Of a DNA stretch of 45,541 nucleotides, positions 21,884 to 45,541 are shown one piece after another. Position 1 is the stretch's first letter. Each line of letters opens with the position of its first letter. Origin of the DNA: a virus. Lineage: Duplodnaviria; Heunggongvirae; Uroviricota; Caudoviricetes. Location of the stretch: IMG/VR virus record IMGVR_UViG_3300008262_000026; one strand, written 5' to 3'. Under the pieces are notes generated by a model. That model ran no database searches. It had not been told where the DNA came from and saw only the letters and a program-made list of their open reading frames with translations. The translations under genes and the position numbers were made by a program.

Positions 21884-23536
21884 ATGCCGATCTCAAATGA
21901 TGTATATCTTGGCAATCCATTATTAAAAAAAGCAAATACGCAAATTGAATTTACTCAAGAACAAATTTTAGAATTTGTCAAGTGTAAAGACGATCCTGTT
22001 TACTTTGCAAATAATTATGTAAAAATTGTAACCCTGGATCATGGATTGCAGACGTTTAAACCATATCATTTCCAAGAAAAATTAATTAAAAATTTTCACA
22101 ATTACAGATTTAATATCTGTAAGATGCCTAGGCAAACAGGAAAGAGTACTACTGTTGTTGCTTTTCTTTTGCACTATGCAGTATTCAATGATAACGTGAA
22201 TATTGGCATTCTGGCAAACAAAGCAGCGACTGCAAGAGAACTCTTAGATAGGTTGCAAACCGCATATGAAAATTTACCAAAGTGGATGCAGCAGGGAATT
22301 ATTTCTTGGAACAAAGGTTCCTTGGAACTGGAAAATGGAAGTAAAATCTTGGCTGCTTCTACTTCTGCTTCTGCAGTTCGTGGTATGTCATTCAATATCT
22401 TATTTTTGGATGAATTTGCGTTCGTTCCAAATCATATTGCAGATTCTTTCTTTGCGTCAGTATATCCTACAATTACTTCAGGTAAGAATACTAAAGTAAT
22501 TATAGTTTCTACTCCACACGGTATGAATCACTTCTACCGTATGTGGCATGATGCAGAAAAAGGTAAGAACCAGTATGTATTTACTGATGTTCATTGGAGC
22601 GAAGTTCCGGGAAGAGATGAGGCATGGAAAAAGCAAACCATAGCCAACACGTCAGATCAACAGTTTAAAGTTGAATTTGAATGTGAATTCCTAGGTTCTG
22701 TTGATACGCTGATTGCACCAAGTAAACTCAGAACCCTCGTGTATGACCACCCTAAGACCCGTAGCGCGGGTTTGGACGTATATCAGGACCCTATAGAGGA
22801 ACACGACTATTTGATTACTGTAGACGTTGCTAGAGGTGTTGGAAATGATTATTCCGCGTTCGTTGTGGTTGATATTACCCAGTTTCCTCATAAAGTTGTT
22901 GCAAAATATAGGAACAATGAAATTAAACCTATGCTTTTCCCCAGCATAATATATGAGGCAGCAATGGCATACAATGCCGCATATATTCTATGTGAAGTAA
23001 ATGATGTTGGGGACCAAGTTGCAAGCATTCTTCAATATGATCTGGAATATAATAATCTTCTTATGTGCTCTATGAGGGGTCGTGCTGGGCAAATAGTTGG
23101 TCAGGGATTTTCTGGGAAGAAAACTCAACTTGGCGTTAAGATGTCAAAGACAGTTAAAAAGGTTGGTTGTCTCAATCTCAAGACGATGATTGAGGAAGAC
23201 AAATTATATTTAAATGATTATGAAATCATTAGCGAACTGACTACCTTTATCCAAAAGCATAATTCATTTGAAGCAGAAGAGGGGTGTAACGATGATTTGG
23301 CAATGTGTTTGGTTATCTATGCTTGGATAGTCGCTCAGGATTATTTTAAAGAGTTAACTGATCAGGATGTAAGGAAGAGATTATATGAAGAACAAAGAAA
23401 TCAAATAGAACAGGATATGTCTCCTTTTGGATTTATTTCAGATGGACTTGATGAGAATACTTTTGTTGATGTCGATGGAGACAGGTGGCACGTTGATGAA
23501 TATGGCGATAGGGCATATATGTGGGAATACATGTAA
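21884..23536 (+). CDS. gp17: Terminase large subunit gp17
   Basis: YLGNPLLK start, Walker A region PRQTGKST, Walker B LFLDEFAF, nuclease motifs TVDVARG and DDLAM. Confidence 0.97.
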   Translation: MPISNDVYLGNPLLKKANTQIEFTQEQILEFVKCKDDPVYFANNYVKIVTLDHGLQTFKPYHFQEKLIKNFHNYRFNICKMPRQTGKSTTVVAFLLHYAVFNDNVNIGILANKAATARELLDRLQTAYENLPKWMQQGIISWNKGSLELENGSKILAASTSASAVRGMSFNILFLDEFAFVPNHIADSFFASVYPTITSGKNTKVIIVSTPHGMNHFYRMWHDAEKGKNQYVFTDVHWSEVPGRDEAWKKQTIANTSDQQFKVEFECEFLGSVDTLIAPSKLRTLVYDHPKTRSAGLDVYQDPIEEHDYLITVDVARGVGNDYSAFVVVDITQFPHKVVAKYRNNEIKPMLFPSIIYEAAMAYNAAYILCEVNDVGDQVASILQYDLEYNNLLMCSMRGRAGQIVGQGFSGKKTQLGVKMSKTVKKVGCLNLKTMIEEDKLYLNDYEIISELTTFIQKHNSFEAEEGCNDDLAMCLVIYAWIVAQDYFKELTDQDVRKRLYEEQRNQIEQDMSPFGFISDGLDENTFVDVDGDRWHVDEYGDRAYMWEYM

Positions 23537-26709: not shown

Positions 26710-28392
26710 ATGGCAAGATTATTTGGATTTTCTATTGATGATAATGAAGAGTTGTCATCAAGTGCAATCTCCCCCGTTCCTCCCAATAAGGAGGACGGGG
26801 TTGACCACTATTTAAGTAGTGGGTTTTTTGGTTCATATGTAGATATTGAAGGTGTCTATAGAACAGAATTTGACCTTATCAAAAGATATCGTGAAATGGC
26901 ACTACATCCAGAGTGTGATAGTGCGATTGAGGATATTGTAAATGAAGCAATTGTAAGTGATACAAATGATAGTCCTGTCCAAATTGATTTGGACAATCTA
27001 AATGCAAGTGATGGAATTAAAAAGAAAATAAGAGAAGAGTTTAAATATATTTTAGAACTCCTAGACTTTGACAAAAAATCGCACGAAATCTATAGGAATT
27101 GGTACGTTGATGGTAGACTTTATTATCACAAAGTAATTGATTTAAAGAGACCCGAAGCAGGAATACTTGAACTGAGATACATTGACGCAATGAAAATGCG
27201 TTATGTTCGTCAAGCAAAGAAAAAGGAAGGGGATAAGTATAAAGTTTCAAATAGGATGATTAATAATCCAATGGATTATGAATTTCCGGAAATTGAAGAG
27301 TATTTCATTTATGAACCAAAAATGACATACCCAACAGGTACTCCAGCTCCTGGTGCATTGGGTGGGTCAAATTCTGGAATCAGAATGACTAAAGATTCAA
27401 TAACTTATTGTACTTCTGGACTTGTAGATAGAAATAAAGGATCTTCTCTTTCATACCTACACAAGGCAATTAAGTCACTCAACCAGTTAAGAATGATTGA
27501 GGACTCTCTGGTAATTTACCGCCTATCAAGAGCACCAGAAAGAAGAATTTTTTACATTGACGTTGGCAATCTACCGAAAGTAAAGGCTGAGCAATATCTT
27601 CGCGATGTTATGATGAGATACCGAAATAAACTGGTGTACGATGCGAACACTGGGGAAATTCGCGATGATAAGAAGTTTATGGCAATGCTTGAAGATTTCT
27701 GGTTGCCAAGAAGAGAAGGTGGCAGAGGAACTGAAATTACTACTCTACCAGGCGGACAAAATCTTGGAGAAATTACTGATATTGAGTACTTTAAGAAAAA
27801 ACTATACCAATCTCTGAATGTTCCCCCATCAAGAATGGATGGAGAAGGTGGATTTAATCTGGGACGTTCATCTGAGATTTTACGAGATGAAGTTAAGTTC
27901 AGTAAATTTGTATCTAGATTGAGAAAGAGATTCTCATATATGTTCAGTGATATGCTGAGAACTCAGTTGATTTTGAAGAATATCATTACTCCAGAAGACT
28001 GGAATGCTATGGACGAGCATATCCAATATGACTTCTTATATGATAACCATTTTGCGGAATTGAAGGACGCAGAACTTCTCAACGAAAGGTTGAATATGGT
28101 TCAAGTTGCAGAACCTTACATTGGCAAATATTTTTCGCAAGATTATGTAAGACGTAAGATTCTGAGACAAACTGATATTGAAATCCTAGAGCAGGACAAA
28201 ATAATCAAAAAAGAAATAGAGGAAGGAATTATTCCAGATCCAAATCAACCCGTAGATCCAGCAACTGGATTGCCATTGGATCAAACTTCACAAATGGATT
28301 TGGGACAACCAGTGATGGAACCAGAGATTGATGCTAGTGCAACTCAACCGAGTACAAAAGCAGTAGATATGCCAAAAGGTGGTGAAATATAA
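26710..28392 (+). CDS. gp20: Portal vertex protein gp20
   Basis: YRLSRAPERRIFYIDVGNLPK.KAEQYLR, EDFWLPRREGGRGTEITTLPGG motifs. Confidence 0.98.
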   Translation: MARLFGFSIDDNEELSSSAISPVPPNKEDGVDHYLSSGFFGSYVDIEGVYRTEFDLIKRYREMALHPECDSAIEDIVNEAIVSDTNDSPVQIDLDNLNASDGIKKKIREEFKYILELLDFDKKSHEIYRNWYVDGRLYYHKVIDLKRPEAGILELRYIDAMKMRYVRQAKKKEGDKYKVSNRMINNPMDYEFPEIEEYFIYEPKMTYPTGTPAPGALGGSNSGIRMTKDSITYCTSGLVDRNKGSSLSYLHKAIKSLNQLRMIEDSLVIYRLSRAPERRIFYIDVGNLPKVKAEQYLRDVMMRYRNKLVYDANTGEIRDDKKFMAMLEDFWLPRREGGRGTEITTLPGGQNLGEITDIEYFKKKLYQSLNVPPSRMDGEGGFNLGRSSEILRDEVKFSKFVSRLRKRFSYMFSDMLRTQLILKNIITPEDWNAMDEHIQYDFLYDNHFAELKDAELLNERLNMVQVAEPYIGKYFSQDYVRRKILRQTDIEILEQDKIIKKEIEEGIIPDPNQPVDPATGLPLDQTSQMDLGQPVMEPEIDASATQPSTKAVDMPKGGEI

Positions 28393-28395
28393 ATA
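28388..28395 (+). promoter_or_regulatory. T4-type late promoter (TATAAATA)
   Basis: Exact consensus overlapping the g20 stop; serves the remnant ORF that follows. Confidence 0.8.
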
Positions 28396-28413
28396 ACAAA
28401 GATTATTATCAGG

Positions 28414-28491
28414 TATGCTAAGGCAGCAGAAAAGGTTGATGGGTTTCGTCCCGATGTAGCCAATCATTTGTTTAATAACGAAGAAGACTGA
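28414..28491 (+). pseudogene. 3' remnant of the small post-g20 prohead-core-like gene (gp67 position)
   Basis: Reads YAKAAEKVDGFRPDVANHLFNNEED* with no in-frame ATG back to the g20 stop; the only ATG (28415) is out of frame. Homology to the cyanophage post-g20 ORF is from recall. Confidence 0.6.
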
Positions 28492-28528
28492 GAGAAATTT
28501 ACCGAAAGTTAGTAGGTAATCCACAATT

Positions 28529-28536
28529 TATAAATA
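28529..28536 (+). promoter_or_regulatory. T4-type late promoter (TATAAATA)
   Basis: Exact consensus 24 nt upstream of ATG 28561. Confidence 0.85.
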
Positions 28537-28560
28537 ACTAATAAGTGTATTTTAAAAATA

Positions 28561-29112
28561 ATGGCGCATAGACCAGTTGGACTTGGCACATCATTTGCCA
28601 CATCATCAACATCAGCACAATCTACATCATTTTCTGTTCAATCAAATGTCTTGAGAGTGGTGGCAACTGGTGGCAATACTTTCGTTGCCATTGGCACCAA
28701 TCCAACAGCAACTACTGGTGATTATCTAGTTCCTTCGGGAACTTCGGCAACTCTTGCTTTAACAAAGGCATCCAATAGAGTTGTGGGAGTTACTACCGGA
28801 ACAACTACAACTATTATTTTTGCAGAAGGAACTCAATGTCCTTTTGGTGTAGGTGACTATGTTACCTTAACTGCGAATGGGCAAAGTTATTATGATTTTA
28901 CACACCAACCAGTAATTTCAGTGGATACCTCATCTGGATATGATGGATATCATCAAACCAGATGTTCTATTGACACTAACACCAGTGGAATTTTGACTGC
29001 ATTTTCGTCAGTAAATGCAACTCTAACAAATTCCCTTAAAGTTGCCGCAAGAACTGATACCGGAACGGGTGTTCTTTATTTACAACAAGTACAAATTTCA
29101 GGACAAGCATAA
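28561..29112 (+). CDS. Late hypothetical protein (Ser/Thr/Gly-rich, probably beta-rich and structural)
   Basis: 183 aa with own late promoter, between g20 and g21; stop overlaps the g21 start (TAATG). Confidence 0.85.
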   Translation: MAHRPVGLGTSFATSSTSAQSTSFSVQSNVLRVVATGGNTFVAIGTNPTATTGDYLVPSGTSATLALTKASNRVVGVTTGTTTTIIFAEGTQCPFGVGDYVTLTANGQSYYDFTHQPVISVDTSSGYDGYHQTRCSIDTNTSGILTAFSSVNATLTNSLKVAARTDTGTGVLYLQQVQISGQA

Positions 29113-31071: not shown

Positions 31072-31293
31072 ATGTTCCATTCAGAGCATCTGCAGGAAAA
31101 GTGGGCACCCCTTCTCGACTATCAGGGTCTTGATCCAATCAAAGATTCTCATCGTAGAGCTGTAACCGCTGTCCTGTTAGAAAACCAAGAAAAATTCTTA
31201 AGAGAAGAATCAGCATTTAATTCAGGTGGCATCGGCAACCTGATGGAATCCCCAATCACCAACTCAGGTAAGCAGGTTTTGACCCCGTTCTGA
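31072..31293 (+). CDS. gp23: Major capsid protein gp23, N-terminal fragment (frameshifted)
   Basis: MFHSEHLQEKWAPLLDY..HRRAVTAVLLENQE is the gp23 N-terminus; similarity stops after ESPITNSG and TGA follows at 31291-31293. Confidence 0.9.
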   Translation: MFHSEHLQEKWAPLLDYQGLDPIKDSHRRAVTAVLLENQEKFLREESAFNSGGIGNLMESPITNSGKQVLTPF

Positions 31294-32450
31294 TTTCCCT
31301 CATTCGTCGTTCAATGCCTAACCTGGTCGCTTATGACCTCGCTGGCGTTCAACCAATGAGCGGTCCTACAGGACTCATCTTCGCAATGCGTTCACGTTAC
31401 ACTGGACAAAGTGGCACCGAAGCTTTCTACAATGAAGTAGATTCTGCATTCTCTGGTCAGAATGCCGCTTTCGACAGAAATGCAGGATTCAGTTCAGTTA
31501 CTTCTGGTCTGGGTACTACTGCACAGTCAGGAACCAACCCATCAGTATTGAACCCAGTAGGTGGTGCAGGAGATAATCTTGCATACGATGCTGGTCAGGG
31601 AATGGTAACTGGCGACTCAGAGCAACTTGGTGGTGATTCTGGTCAATTTAACCAGATGGCATTCTCAATCGAGAAAGTCACCGTTACCGCAAAGTCACGC
31701 GCTCTGAAAGCCGAGTATTCACTTGAGCTTGCTCAAGACCTTAAGGCAATCCACGGTCTGAATGCTGAAGCGGAATTGGCAAATATTCTCTCTACAGAGA
31801 TTCTTGCCGAAATCAACCGCGAAGTTATCAGAACCATCTATAAGGTTGCTGAACAGGGTGCTGTACAGAACGTAGCAACTCCTGGCGTATTTGACCTGGA
31901 CGTTGACTCCAACGGTCGTTGGTCAGTTGAGAAGTTCAAGGGTCTTCTGTTCCAAATTGAGCGTGATGCCAACGCAATCGCTCAAAGAACTCGTAGAGGA
32001 AAGGGCAACATTGTCATGTGCTCTGCTGACGTTGCTTCAGCACTGACCATGGCTGGTGTTCTTGACTACACCCCCGCACTCAACGCTAACCTTAACGTTG
32101 ATGATACTGGCAATACATTTGCTGGTACTTTGATGGGCAAATTCCGTGTCTATATTGACCCATATTCTGCTAACCTGACTTCCTCGAACGGAACTCCAGG
32201 CAACCAGTACTATGTTGTCGGTTATAAGGGTTCTTCCCCCTATGACGCAGGAATCTTCTATTGTCCTTATGTTCCTCTCCAAATGGTTCGTGCCGTTGGT
32301 GAGAACAGCTTCCAGCCTAAGATTGGCTTTAAGACCCGTTATGGTCTTGTTGCAAACCCATTTGCAGAAGGCACTGAGCAGGGTCTTGGAAGACTTCAGG
32401 TTAATGCAAACCGTTACTACAGACGTGTTGCAGTCAAAAACCTTATGTGA
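31272..32450 (+). CDS. gp23: Major capsid protein gp23, main body (-1 frame relative to the N-terminal fragment)
   Basis: Frame opens after TAA 31269-31271 and reads AGFDPVLISLIRRSMPNLVAYD...KSRALKAEYSLELAQDLKAIHGL...FQPKIGFKTRYG; the track ATG 31314 is internal to the conserved motif. Confidence 0.95.
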   Translation, partial: AGFDPVLISLIRRSMPNLVAYDLAGVQPMSGPTGLIFAMRSRYTGQSGTEAFYNEVDSAFSGQNAAFDRNAGFSSVTSGLGTTAQSGTNPSVLNPVGGAGDNLAYDAGQGMVTGDSEQLGGDSGQFNQMAFSIEKVTVTAKSRALKAEYSLELAQDLKAIHGLNAEAELANILSTEILAEINREVIRTIYKVAEQGAVQNVATPGVFDLDVDSNGRWSVEKFKGLLFQIERDANAIAQRTRRGKGNIVMCSADVASALTMAGVLDYTPALNANLNVDDTGNTFAGTLMGKFRVYIDPYSANLTSSNGTPGNQYYVVGYKGSSPYDAGIFYCPYVPLQMVRAVGENSFQPKIGFKTRYGLVANPFAEGTEQGLGRLQVNANRYYRRVAVKNLM

Positions 32451-42239: not shown

Positions 42240-43361
42240 ATGCCTCGTATCAAAATGAATGACAATCAAATTATTGACGATCTGAAAACTACTTTCGGTG
42301 GCACCATTACTTCTGCCGATGTGCGGGGTTATTGTGCCTCTAAAAATCTTTCCTATCCCACTGTCACTAAGCGACTTGACCCCTTCAAAGTTGGTCGTGG
42401 CAAATGGAATCTTGAGGTGACTCAAGAACGTGTGGAAGAGATTGAGCGTTCCTTCCAGAATGTTGCTGTCCTTCCCGAACATCACCAAAACCTTATTCCT
42501 GATAAAGATGCTACTTTCGTCAAGTTTGGTAACTTCAATGATGTTAAAAAAATTATTCACTCCCGTCTCTTTTATCCTACGTTCGTTACGGGTCTTTCGG
42601 GTAATGGTAAAACGTTCGGTGTGGAGCAAGCGTGTGCTCAACTTGGTCGCGAATTGATCCGTGTCAATATTACTATTGAGACTGACGAGGATGATCTGAT
42701 CGGCGGTTTCCGTCTTGTGAATGGCGAAACTGCCTGGCACAATGGTCCTGTGATTGAGGCACTTGAGCGTGGTGCTATCCTGCTGCTTGACGAGATTGAC
42801 CTTGCATCTAACAAGATTCTCTGTCTGCAATCCGTTCTGGAAGGTAAAGGTGTCTTCCTGAAAAAGATTGGTCGGTTTGTCAAACCTGCTGCTGGATTCA
42901 ATGTGATTGCCACCGCAAACACTAAAGGCAAAGGTTCTGATGATGGTCGTTTCATTGGTACTAACGTTCTGAATGAAGCATTCCTTGAGCGTTTCCCTGT
43001 GACCTTTGAGCAGTCCTATCCTGCACCTTCCGTGGAACAAAAGATTCTTGAGGGTATTGCTCTGGATCTTGGTGTGGAAGATCGCGAATTCTGCAAACGT
43101 CTTGTTGATTGGGGTGATGTAATTCGTAAGACCTTCTATGATGGTGGTATTGAGGAAATTATCAGTACTCGTCGTTTGGTTCATATCCTTCGCGCATACT
43201 CTATTTTCAATGACAAAGCAAAGGCAATTCAAGTTTGTGTGAATCGTTTTGACGATGAAACTAAAACTGCGTTCCTTGAGTTGTACGATAAAATTGATGC
43301 TGATTTTGTAATGCCTACCAAAGAAGCTACCGAAGAGGTTGCACCAAAGAACATTTTCTGA
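42240..43361 (+). CDS. cobS: CobS/MoxR-type AAA+ ATPase
   Basis: Walker A GLSGNGKT, Walker B LLLDEID, NEAFLERF. The track start 42207 overlaps the -10 box, so ATG 42240 is preferred. Confidence 0.88.
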   Translation: MPRIKMNDNQIIDDLKTTFGGTITSADVRGYCASKNLSYPTVTKRLDPFKVGRGKWNLEVTQERVEEIERSFQNVAVLPEHHQNLIPDKDATFVKFGNFNDVKKIIHSRLFYPTFVTGLSGNGKTFGVEQACAQLGRELIRVNITIETDEDDLIGGFRLVNGETAWHNGPVIEALERGAILLLDEIDLASNKILCLQSVLEGKGVFLKKIGRFVKPAAGFNVIATANTKGKGSDDGRFIGTNVLNEAFLERFPVTFEQSYPAPSVEQKILEGIALDLGVEDREFCKRLVDWGDVIRKTFYDGGIEEIISTRRLVHILRAYSIFNDKAKAIQVCVNRFDDETKTAFLELYDKIDADFVMPTKEATEEVAPKNIF

Positions 43362-43757: not shown

Positions 43758-44423
43758 ATGAAACTCTCTGATAAAACTCTGACTCTTCTTAAGAACTTCT
43801 CTTCTATCAATCAATCTATTCTTTTTAAAGAAGGAAATTCTCTTCGTACTATTTCTGTAATGAAAAATATTCTTGCAGAAGCAACAATTGAAGAAGAACT
43901 ACCCAAGGATTTCGGTATCTATGACCTCAATCAATTCCTGAATGGTCTTAATCTTCACCAAAATGCGGAACTTGATTTTGGGAATGATAATTATGTTGTC
44001 ATCAAAGAAGGCAAATCGCGCTCCAAATACTTCTTTGCAGATCCCAATGTAATTGTCACTCCTCCTGATAAATCCATTTCCCTTCCAAGTGAAGATGTTT
44101 GTTTCCTTCTTGATACCAAAGAACTTGATAAACTGCTTAAGGCTGCTGCTGTGTATCAACTGCCTGACTTGTCTGTGGTTGGCGAAGCTGATGTGGTGAA
44201 ACTTGTGGTTCGCGATAAGAAGAATGATACCTCTAATGATTTCTCTATTGTTGTTGGTGAAACTGATGAAGTATTTTCCTTCAACTTTAAAGTGGAAAAT
44301 ATCAAGATTATTCCTGGTTCTTATGAGGTTGTGATTTCTCAGAAACTTCTTTCCCGATTTAAGAATACTGGATTTGATGTAACATATTATATCGCTCTTG
44401 AACCCGACAGCACTTTTGGGTGA
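43758..44423 (+). CDS. gp45: Sliding clamp gp45
   Basis: MKLSDKTLTLLKNFSSINQSI, FGIYDLNQFL, YYIALEPDS motifs. Confidence 0.97.
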   Translation: MKLSDKTLTLLKNFSSINQSILFKEGNSLRTISVMKNILAEATIEEELPKDFGIYDLNQFLNGLNLHQNAELDFGNDNYVVIKEGKSRSKYFFADPNVIVTPPDKSISLPSEDVCFLLDTKELDKLLKAAAVYQLPDLSVVGEADVVKLVVRDKKNDTSNDFSIVVGETDEVFSFNFKVENIKIIPGSYEVVISQKLLSRFKNTGFDVTYYIALEPDSTFG

Positions 44424-44443
44424 ACATCTGAGAGTATTCTTTT

Positions 44444-44451
44444 TATAAATA
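44444..44451 (+). promoter_or_regulatory. T4-type late promoter (TATAAATA) of the endonuclease gene
   Basis: Exact consensus 24 nt upstream of ATG 44476. Confidence 0.8.
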
Positions 44452-44475
44452 ATTATGTAGTTGGAAGATAAGCAA

Positions 44476-45057
44476 ATGTATTGTTTGGAATGTAATTCTT
44501 CTCTTAAAAAAAGACAAAAAAAGTTCTGCTCTTGTAAATGTATGAATGTGTATAATGCAAGAGAATTTGGTATGAAAAAAAGAGAAGAAAATCCAAACCG
44601 ATATAAAATTTGTGAAGAATGCAATCAATCTCTAAATCTTAATAAATTTAGTTTGATTGATAAGTGGAACTCCAATTCTGGAACAAAGAATACTTGTAAA
44701 AAATGTTCCGCAAGAATCCGACAAGTTCAAAAATTAAATAAAGATTGGAAAGAAGATGCTGCTAAACTTCTTTATAAAAATATTAAGTCAAGATGTAAAC
44801 AAACTGGAAGAGAATTTTCTATTGATTTAGAAGATATAATTATTCCAGAAAAATGCCCCGTATTTGGATTTGACTTAAAAAGAGAAGATAAAAAAACCTG
44901 GATGTTTGCTCCTAGTGTTGACAGGATAGATAGTTCCAAAGGTTATATAAAAGGAAATATTACAGTCGTCAGTAGAAGGGCAAACATCTTAAAAAGAGAT
45001 GCTACAGTTGAAGAGTTAGAACTATTGGTTCATTACTACAAAACATTGAGGAATTAA
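44476..45057 (+). mobile_element. Free-standing HNH/His-Me-finger homing endonuclease gene
   Basis: Two N-terminal Cys clusters, CPVFG, SVDRIDSSKGY..GN..VVS..AN..K beta-beta-alpha motif; own late promoter; inserted between g45 and the denV-like gene. Start TTG 44461 or ATG 44476. Confidence 0.8.
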
Positions 45058-45059
45058 TC

Positions 45060-45541
45060 TTGAACATATTTGTTACTTCTCCATTTCCTGCGGAGAGTGC
45101 TATTGTACTTCCTGACCGTCACGTAACGAAGATGGCCCTTGAATGCTGCCAGATGCTGTCCATAGTGGCGTCTGAGTGGTATCATGGGTATGGAACCCTA
45201 CCCAAGGCAGATGGGACGCCTTACAGCACCACCAAGGGGGCATTCAGGAACCATCCCTGTACCAAGTGGGCAGCGGAGAGTGTCCACAATGCTTACTGGT
45301 TGATCAAGCACGGTATGAATCTGTGTGATGAATATATGCTGAGATACGGTAAGCAGCATTCGTGTTATAATACTCTACTTGCTGCTTATTATCTTTTCCC
45401 CAAAGGAAAGATTACTGAAGTCACTCCATTTGTTCGTGCTATGCCCGATGAATATAAACTTGACACAAGCATTGACACTTTTACTGCTTACAAGATGTAT
45501 ATCGCATCCAAACCTTGGGTTGCATCTAATTATCTTCGTAT
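45060..45541 (+). CDS. Pyrimidine-dimer DNA glycosylase / endonuclease V-like protein, 3'-truncated; missed by the ORF track
   Basis: TTG start; MNIFVTSPFPAESAIVLPDRHVTKMALECCQML...NHPCTKW...RYGKQH, open to the window end. Confidence 0.8.
   Translation, partial: MNIFVTSPFPAESAIVLPDRHVTKMALECCQMLSIVASEWYHGYGTLPKADGTPYSTTKGAFRNHPCTKWAAESVHNAYWLIKHGMNLCDEYMLRYGKQHSCYNTLLAAYYLFPKGKITEVTPFVRAMPDEYKLDTSIDTFTAYKMYIASKPWVASNYLR

Follow-up and report, generated by a model that had tools for sequence, protein, structure and literature searches.

The split capsid gene g23 of a freshwater T4-like cyanophage contig is very probably an assembly artefact

Whether a phage of the T4 type could have a major capsid gene that is broken in two is the question raised by g23 in the window, by which we mean the whole stretch of 45,541 nt analysed here. 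The window is the late-gene block of a freshwater T4-like cyanophage (Kyanoviridae-like) and has the gene order tail sheath, tail tube, portal, two small core genes, gp21 protease, gp22 scaffold, gp23, uvsY and uvsW. Read as biology, the split suggests a defective or a recoding cyanophage, and caution is needed here, as the evidence instead points to an ordinary capsid gene and the split is most likely not real biology.

The split is real in the sequence, with the ORF ends, frames and TAA and TGA positions that the first-pass annotation gave: g23 does not run as one ORF from the propeptide to the C-terminus, as the frame changes at 31271/31272 (Table 1). ATG 31072 starts a 73-codon ORF that stops at TGA 31291-31293; its codons 1-66 are native, up to T-N-S-G (GGT 31267-31269), and codons 67-73 (K-Q-V-L-T-P-F) are out of frame. 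The -1 frame has a TAA at 31269-31271, reads A-G-F-D-P-V-L-I-S-L-I-R-R-S-M-P-N from 31272 and stays open to TAA 32448-32450; its earliest ATG is at 31314, so that the longest ATG-initiated ORF (31314-32450) encodes 378 aa. Both parts belong to a capsid gene. The N-terminal ORF matches the PHROG major head protein family (E 4e-10) and aligns with the N-termini of intact relatives, and the body (31272-32447) gives a full-length match to the Pfam profile PF07068 Gp23, over positions 3-376 of 376 (E 7e-149).

Table 1. Coordinates of the two parts of g23 and of the two junctions in the window
Feature	Position	Strand	Content
N-terminal ORF of g23	31072..31293	+	73 codons: 66 native + 7 out-of-frame + TGA
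g23 junction, 55 nt missing	31271..31272	.	L093:19373-19427, 18 codons + 1 nt of Gly/Ala linker
g23 body, -1 frame	31272..32450	+	392 codons + stop; Pfam PF07068 Gp23
Second junction, 82 nt missing	28416..28417	.	L093:16534-16615

The closest model for this gene is the T4 gp23 precursor (PF07068; 6UZC, 5VF3, 7VS5), which occupies the same slot after the portal, small core genes, gp21 and gp22, and the gp23 of an intact relative matches the T4 structures 6UZC and 5VF3 with E 3e-83. Aligned through that relative, an L-M-E/S-P motif at 31240-31254 falls at the propeptide cleavage position of T4, so that the window's propeptide, like that of T4, ends in an L-x-E motif, with a predicted gp21 cut within L-M-E/S (31240-31251). 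The predicted propeptide is therefore 59 aa long, cut after E59, and not the 73 aa that had been proposed for it. A Gly-rich stretch ahead of the conserved N-arm is also shared with T4. Unlike in T4, the frame in the window breaks where 55 nt of the linker are missing, whereas near-identical contigs encode an unbroken protein of 477-479 aa.

These contigs allowed the lesion to be sized. Cultured phages are only ~81% identical in g23, and DNA homology to them begins at 31272. Looking up the gp21, gp17, gp47, gp8-like and gp22 proteins of the window in JGI, ENA and NCBI metagenomes led to contigs from many independent metagenomes that are 99.4-99.97% identical to the window, with exactly two indels in 45.5 kb, one of 55 nt and one of 82 nt; the contigs used to count indels have an identity of 99.7-99.97%. 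The fact that there are only two indels over this length indicates that general read error is not the cause, and it bears out the earlier view that the lesion in g23 is local. That earlier view had allowed for the loss of 1 nt or for a longer deletion of 3n+1 nt that takes out a Gly/Ala linker of 15-20 aa, to be told apart by alignment with the intact gp23 of close relatives. The alignment with near-identical contigs shows that 55 nt, or 3x18+1, are lost between 31271 and 31272, which is exactly that linker, and the 1-nt loss can be set aside. The 55-nt segment and an intact g23 of 477-479 aa are carried by contigs from at least seven other metagenome samples, with flanks that are 99.4-99.96% identical to those in the window; the JGI samples with the intact gene are 3300008110, 3300008107, 3300008448, 3300042691, 3300042987, 3300047550 and 3300047564, to which two ENA proteins can be added, and the gp23 calls of 477-479 aa from these seven samples and two ENA assemblies lie within the same 90% cluster. 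In each of the 80 IMG/VR relatives that are more distant, the propeptide is in frame with the body, and the stretch from Met1 to GFDP counts 70-90 residues, compared to 67 2/3 in the window.

The junction belongs to this contig alone. A scan for its 24/25-mer, which evidently did not extend to the window's own record, gave no match in IMG/VR, JGI metagenome contigs and GTDB genomes, so the search of other assemblies for the same junction, proposed at the outset, yielded none. Each of the two products (73 aa and 378 aa) is a singleton, both being from the window's own JGI contig of 109,541 nt, and exact-product look-ups of the two pieces returned no record. A junction confined to one assembly, with the intact allele in near-identical genomes, is what an artefact would leave.

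As for the linker itself, its intact form contains an 18-nt imperfect direct repeat (L093:19367-19417; 83% identical, 33-nt spacing) that amounts to an 11-codon duplication, and it is the most variable spot of g23 among near-identical strains. Several ways of losing the segment were tried and rejected on the geometry of the junction. There is not a single shared base at the g23 junction for a microhomology- or repeat-mediated deletion; a deletion between the local CAGGT repeats would take out 63 nt in frame instead of the 55 nt observed; the 33-nt spacing of the 18-nt repeat does not fit the end points; and the segment is not bracketed by an inverted repeat, as hairpin skipping would need.

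The edges of the missing piece are more informative. The first deleted base, directly after GGTAA, is C in L093 and L114 and T in L111, L112 and L113, at the third position of an Asn codon, and the last, directly before GCAGG, is C in L093 and L114 and T in L112 and L113, at the third position of a Thr codon; the T-haplotype linker was sought in IMG/VR and was not found there. Several further variable sites lie within the 55 nt, which give at least four protein haplotypes in 18 codons, and the flanking residues are invariant. The missing piece is thus bounded by polymorphic sites and variable inside, and as far as the compared contigs tell, it is exactly what would be the interior of a strain bubble, from the first variable site to the last. 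Since both bounding SNPs are at third codon positions, the length of the deleted block is 3n+1 and a frameshift results.

Other assemblies of the same population fail at the same place or in the same manner. Within the 55-nt block, contigs L088 and L111 break off after 17 nt and 37 nt, respectively, and L100 starts 23 nt before the block end. In the sister JGI scaffold L098, 54 Ns (L098:13946-13999) stand for 196 nt of the window (42299-42494), a stretch that both begins and ends with a site that is polymorphic (SNP) among L100-L102; in gene 45, the same scaffold has a gapless, in-frame loss of 147 nt (window 43991-44137). L084 lacks 98 nt at 28523-28620, which removes a late promoter and the start of a DUF7243 gene, and L111 starts 6 nt from this junction, with a SNP at 28524. 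Defects of the kind seen in g23 are thus found elsewhere in this population's assemblies, in L098 and L084 and at the contig ends of L088, L100 and L111.

A second lesion in the window lies 2.9 kb upstream of the g23 junction, at 28416/28417. The loss of 82 nt deprives a gene of 46-50 aa after the portal gene of its ribosome-binding spacer, start codon and first half; this small gene belongs to PHROG 14164, of unknown function, and sits at the position of T4 gene 67. The 82-nt segment is present in 10 near-identical contigs from at least eight assemblies, and the junction, sought in JGI metagenomes and IMG/VR by scans that evidently did not extend to the window's own record, had no match. The left edge of this lesion adjoins a T/C SNP, and three JGI scaffolds, each immediately preceded by an A/C SNP, begin 7 nt inward of its right edge; against an artefact, the closest known SNP to the right edge is 8 nt off and not adjacent.

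Compared with most near-identical contigs, the window has 21 mismatches in the 700 nt to the left of 28416 and none in the 700 nt to the right. The 3' end of the portal gene (27700-28416) is a divergence hot spot, and the nearest relatives differ on either side of it, which suggests strain mosaicism. The switch of nearest relative at 28416 might be taken to prove a chimeric join, but this argument was kept only in part: L090 has a similar mosaic with the 82 nt present, so that natural recombination can give the same pattern.

Taken together, it is very probable that the g23 split is an artefact of metagenome assembly or scaffolding, in which a strain bubble was dropped and its flanks were butted together. 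The first-pass annotation had ranked an assembly artefact first, and this ranking holds up on the private junction, the SNP-bounded ends, the other assemblies that break there and the N-gap of a sister scaffold. The sampled population would have held several near-identical cyanophage strains whose g23 linkers differ at many sites within 55 nt, and this variation would have produced a short bubble in the assembly graph. The left path common to the strains would stop directly ahead of the first variable site, and the common right path would start directly behind the last; the short branch pieces would then be discarded and the two flanks joined without a gap, giving a 3n+1 deletion. The same process 2.9 kb upstream would have caused the 82-nt loss. 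The exact assembler step, and the join itself, we infer. The window resembles the strain-bubble collapse and zero-length scaffold joins of short-read metagenomes in that an SNP-bounded piece is missing where other assemblies break, that this piece is shorter than a read, and that a sister scaffold represents its gap by Ns of the wrong length. It differs from L098 in that there are no Ns at its join, which counts against an artefact. The phage itself most likely has an ordinary gp23 precursor of 477 aa, as predicted from the contigs with the intact gene.

Dropping of a bubble does not predict the likeness of the two junctions, and this likeness is where the other explanations have to be weighed. 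The junctions read TCAGGTATGC and TCAGGTAAGC, and their 10-mers (28409-28418 and 31264-31273) have 9 of 10 bases in common (TCAGGTA-W-GC), which is improbable by chance, as simulated random deletions in the window give p ~8e-5 when the same register is demanded and ~3e-3 under a loose comparison. The likeness is unexplained, and because the motif cannot be connected to the artefact model, we keep a real, sequence-directed deletion in the account at a low probability. It is unlikely that the deletions are real, in which case the contig would represent the genome of a defective phage, or a minor variant that depends on co-infection by intact phages to propagate, without 55 nt of g23 and 82 nt of the gene after the portal, and perhaps cut by a sequence-directed process at TCAGGTA-W. 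That both lesions are in head-assembly genes within 3 kb of each other, that the remainder of the window is clean, and that a pure de Bruijn contig would need reads crossing the junction speak for such deletions. However, the junction is in no other assembly of this abundant population, and a lethal double mutant would need to out-cover the wild type to become the assembled path; nor is there a reason for real deletions to start and end exactly at population SNP sites or to coincide with the contig ends of other assemblies. TCAGGTA is not enriched in the window, with 6 copies compared to 4.9 expected, and the other two copies on the + strand, at 22478 and 32922, are free of lesions. We consider it quite unlikely that both lesions are real and come from a sequence-directed process whose target lies directly behind TCAGGTA-W and which inactivates head-assembly genes; if it were so, defective cyanophage genomes would persist in the lake population by complementation. 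A defective or helper-dependent phage, which had been listed as an option, is disfavoured by the private junction and the SNP-bounded ends. What decides for a dropped bubble is that the edges are SNP-bounded and that other assemblies stop there, as a real deletion would have no reason to do either.

The two remaining explanations accept the split and ask how a capsid protein could still be made. Programmed recoding, by a -1 slip in 31272-31290 or by an 8-nt hop from GGT 31267-31269 to GGT 31275-31277, would yield a full capsid protein, and the frames indeed overlap by 22 nt, with identical GGT codons 8 nt apart and a four-T run and a four-C run in the overlap; we regard it as highly improbable. 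None of the three marks of a programmed -1 frameshift (slippery heptamer, downstream structure, conserved frame arrangement) was found: the overlap 31272-31290 lacks an X XXY YYZ heptamer, and at its G-GTT-TTG and A-CCC-CG only one tRNA could re-pair; no significant fold is formed by 31255-31375 (z -1.56; 14/200 shuffles fold as well); and the 80/80 distant IMG/VR relatives and all near-identical contigs are in frame. T7 likewise has a capsid gene, 10A/10B, with parts in frames 0 and -1, but there an extension is added by means of a conserved slippery site close to the 3' end, whereas in the window the heptamer is missing and no functional protein at all could be made unless the shift took place. 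A bypass of the T4 gene 60 type (a 50-nt hop between matched GGA codons) resembles the window in that matched Gly codons, GGT here, flank a short untranslatable stretch as would-be take-off and landing sites, but the codon after the would-be take-off GGT is AAG (31270-31272) and not a stop, there is neither a conserved signal nor conservation in relatives, and the arrangement arises from a private deletion. The sequence downstream does not differ by a single base from that of relatives with the intact gene, so it holds no dedicated signal, and the 700-nt flanks have 0 mismatches to L088 and L100, which makes the junction too recent for a recoding signal to have evolved. Any recoded product would still lack 18 linker residues. 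With so recent a deletion, no slippery heptamer and no significant structure, the -1 slip or 8-nt hop put forward by the first-pass annotation is effectively excluded. It is extremely improbable that g23 is truly split and that translation of the body alone, starting at ATG 31314, yields a shorter but functional capsid protein. This frame is open from 31314 to 32450 and spans most of the Gp23 profile; yet no Shine-Dalgarno-like sequence lies ahead of 31314, and a protein made from there would be without the propeptide and without the invariant A-G-F-D-P-V-L-I-S-L-I-R-R-S block kept by the 80 relatives and T4 gp23, which confirms on both counts what had been said of this internal start. The arrangement is in no other genome, and the split forms on other long contigs are from long-read assemblies with many frameshifts.

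These split forms were considered separately as a possible recurrent biological split of g23, since the search with the 73-aa product also matched numerous short ORFs for the N-terminus of g23, located on contigs of 50-210 kb. This was ruled out, as the shift points are scattered (~aa 43-105) and lead to both alternative frames; in the one example examined, P0050, which lies on a 'pilon' long-read contig, the scaffold gene of that contig is also in three pieces. Such short N-terminal ORFs are evidently ordinary indel errors and have no shared biological feature.

If g23 was indeed broken by a dropped strain bubble, the case would show how such an artefact can be recognised in viral metagenomes with many strains: by a clean deletion of 50-150 nt that has SNPs at its edges, lies at a place where other assemblies break, and is of length 3n+1 when both bounding SNPs are synonymous third-position sites. 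This signature could serve to screen further cases in which an essential phage gene seems to be frameshifted. The comparison also marks the linker of the gp23 N-arm as a micro-diverse spot among otherwise near-identical strains.

Two further differences among the near-identical contigs were observed. In L096 the portal gene is split by a 1-nt indel. A 198-codon ORF between gene 45 and the next gene (window 44424-45060) is present in L100 and L102 and absent from the near-identical L101, where ~28 nt stand in place of 637 nt and identity falls to 87% in the flank beyond, a presence/absence polymorphism that is typical of a mobile endonuclease gene.
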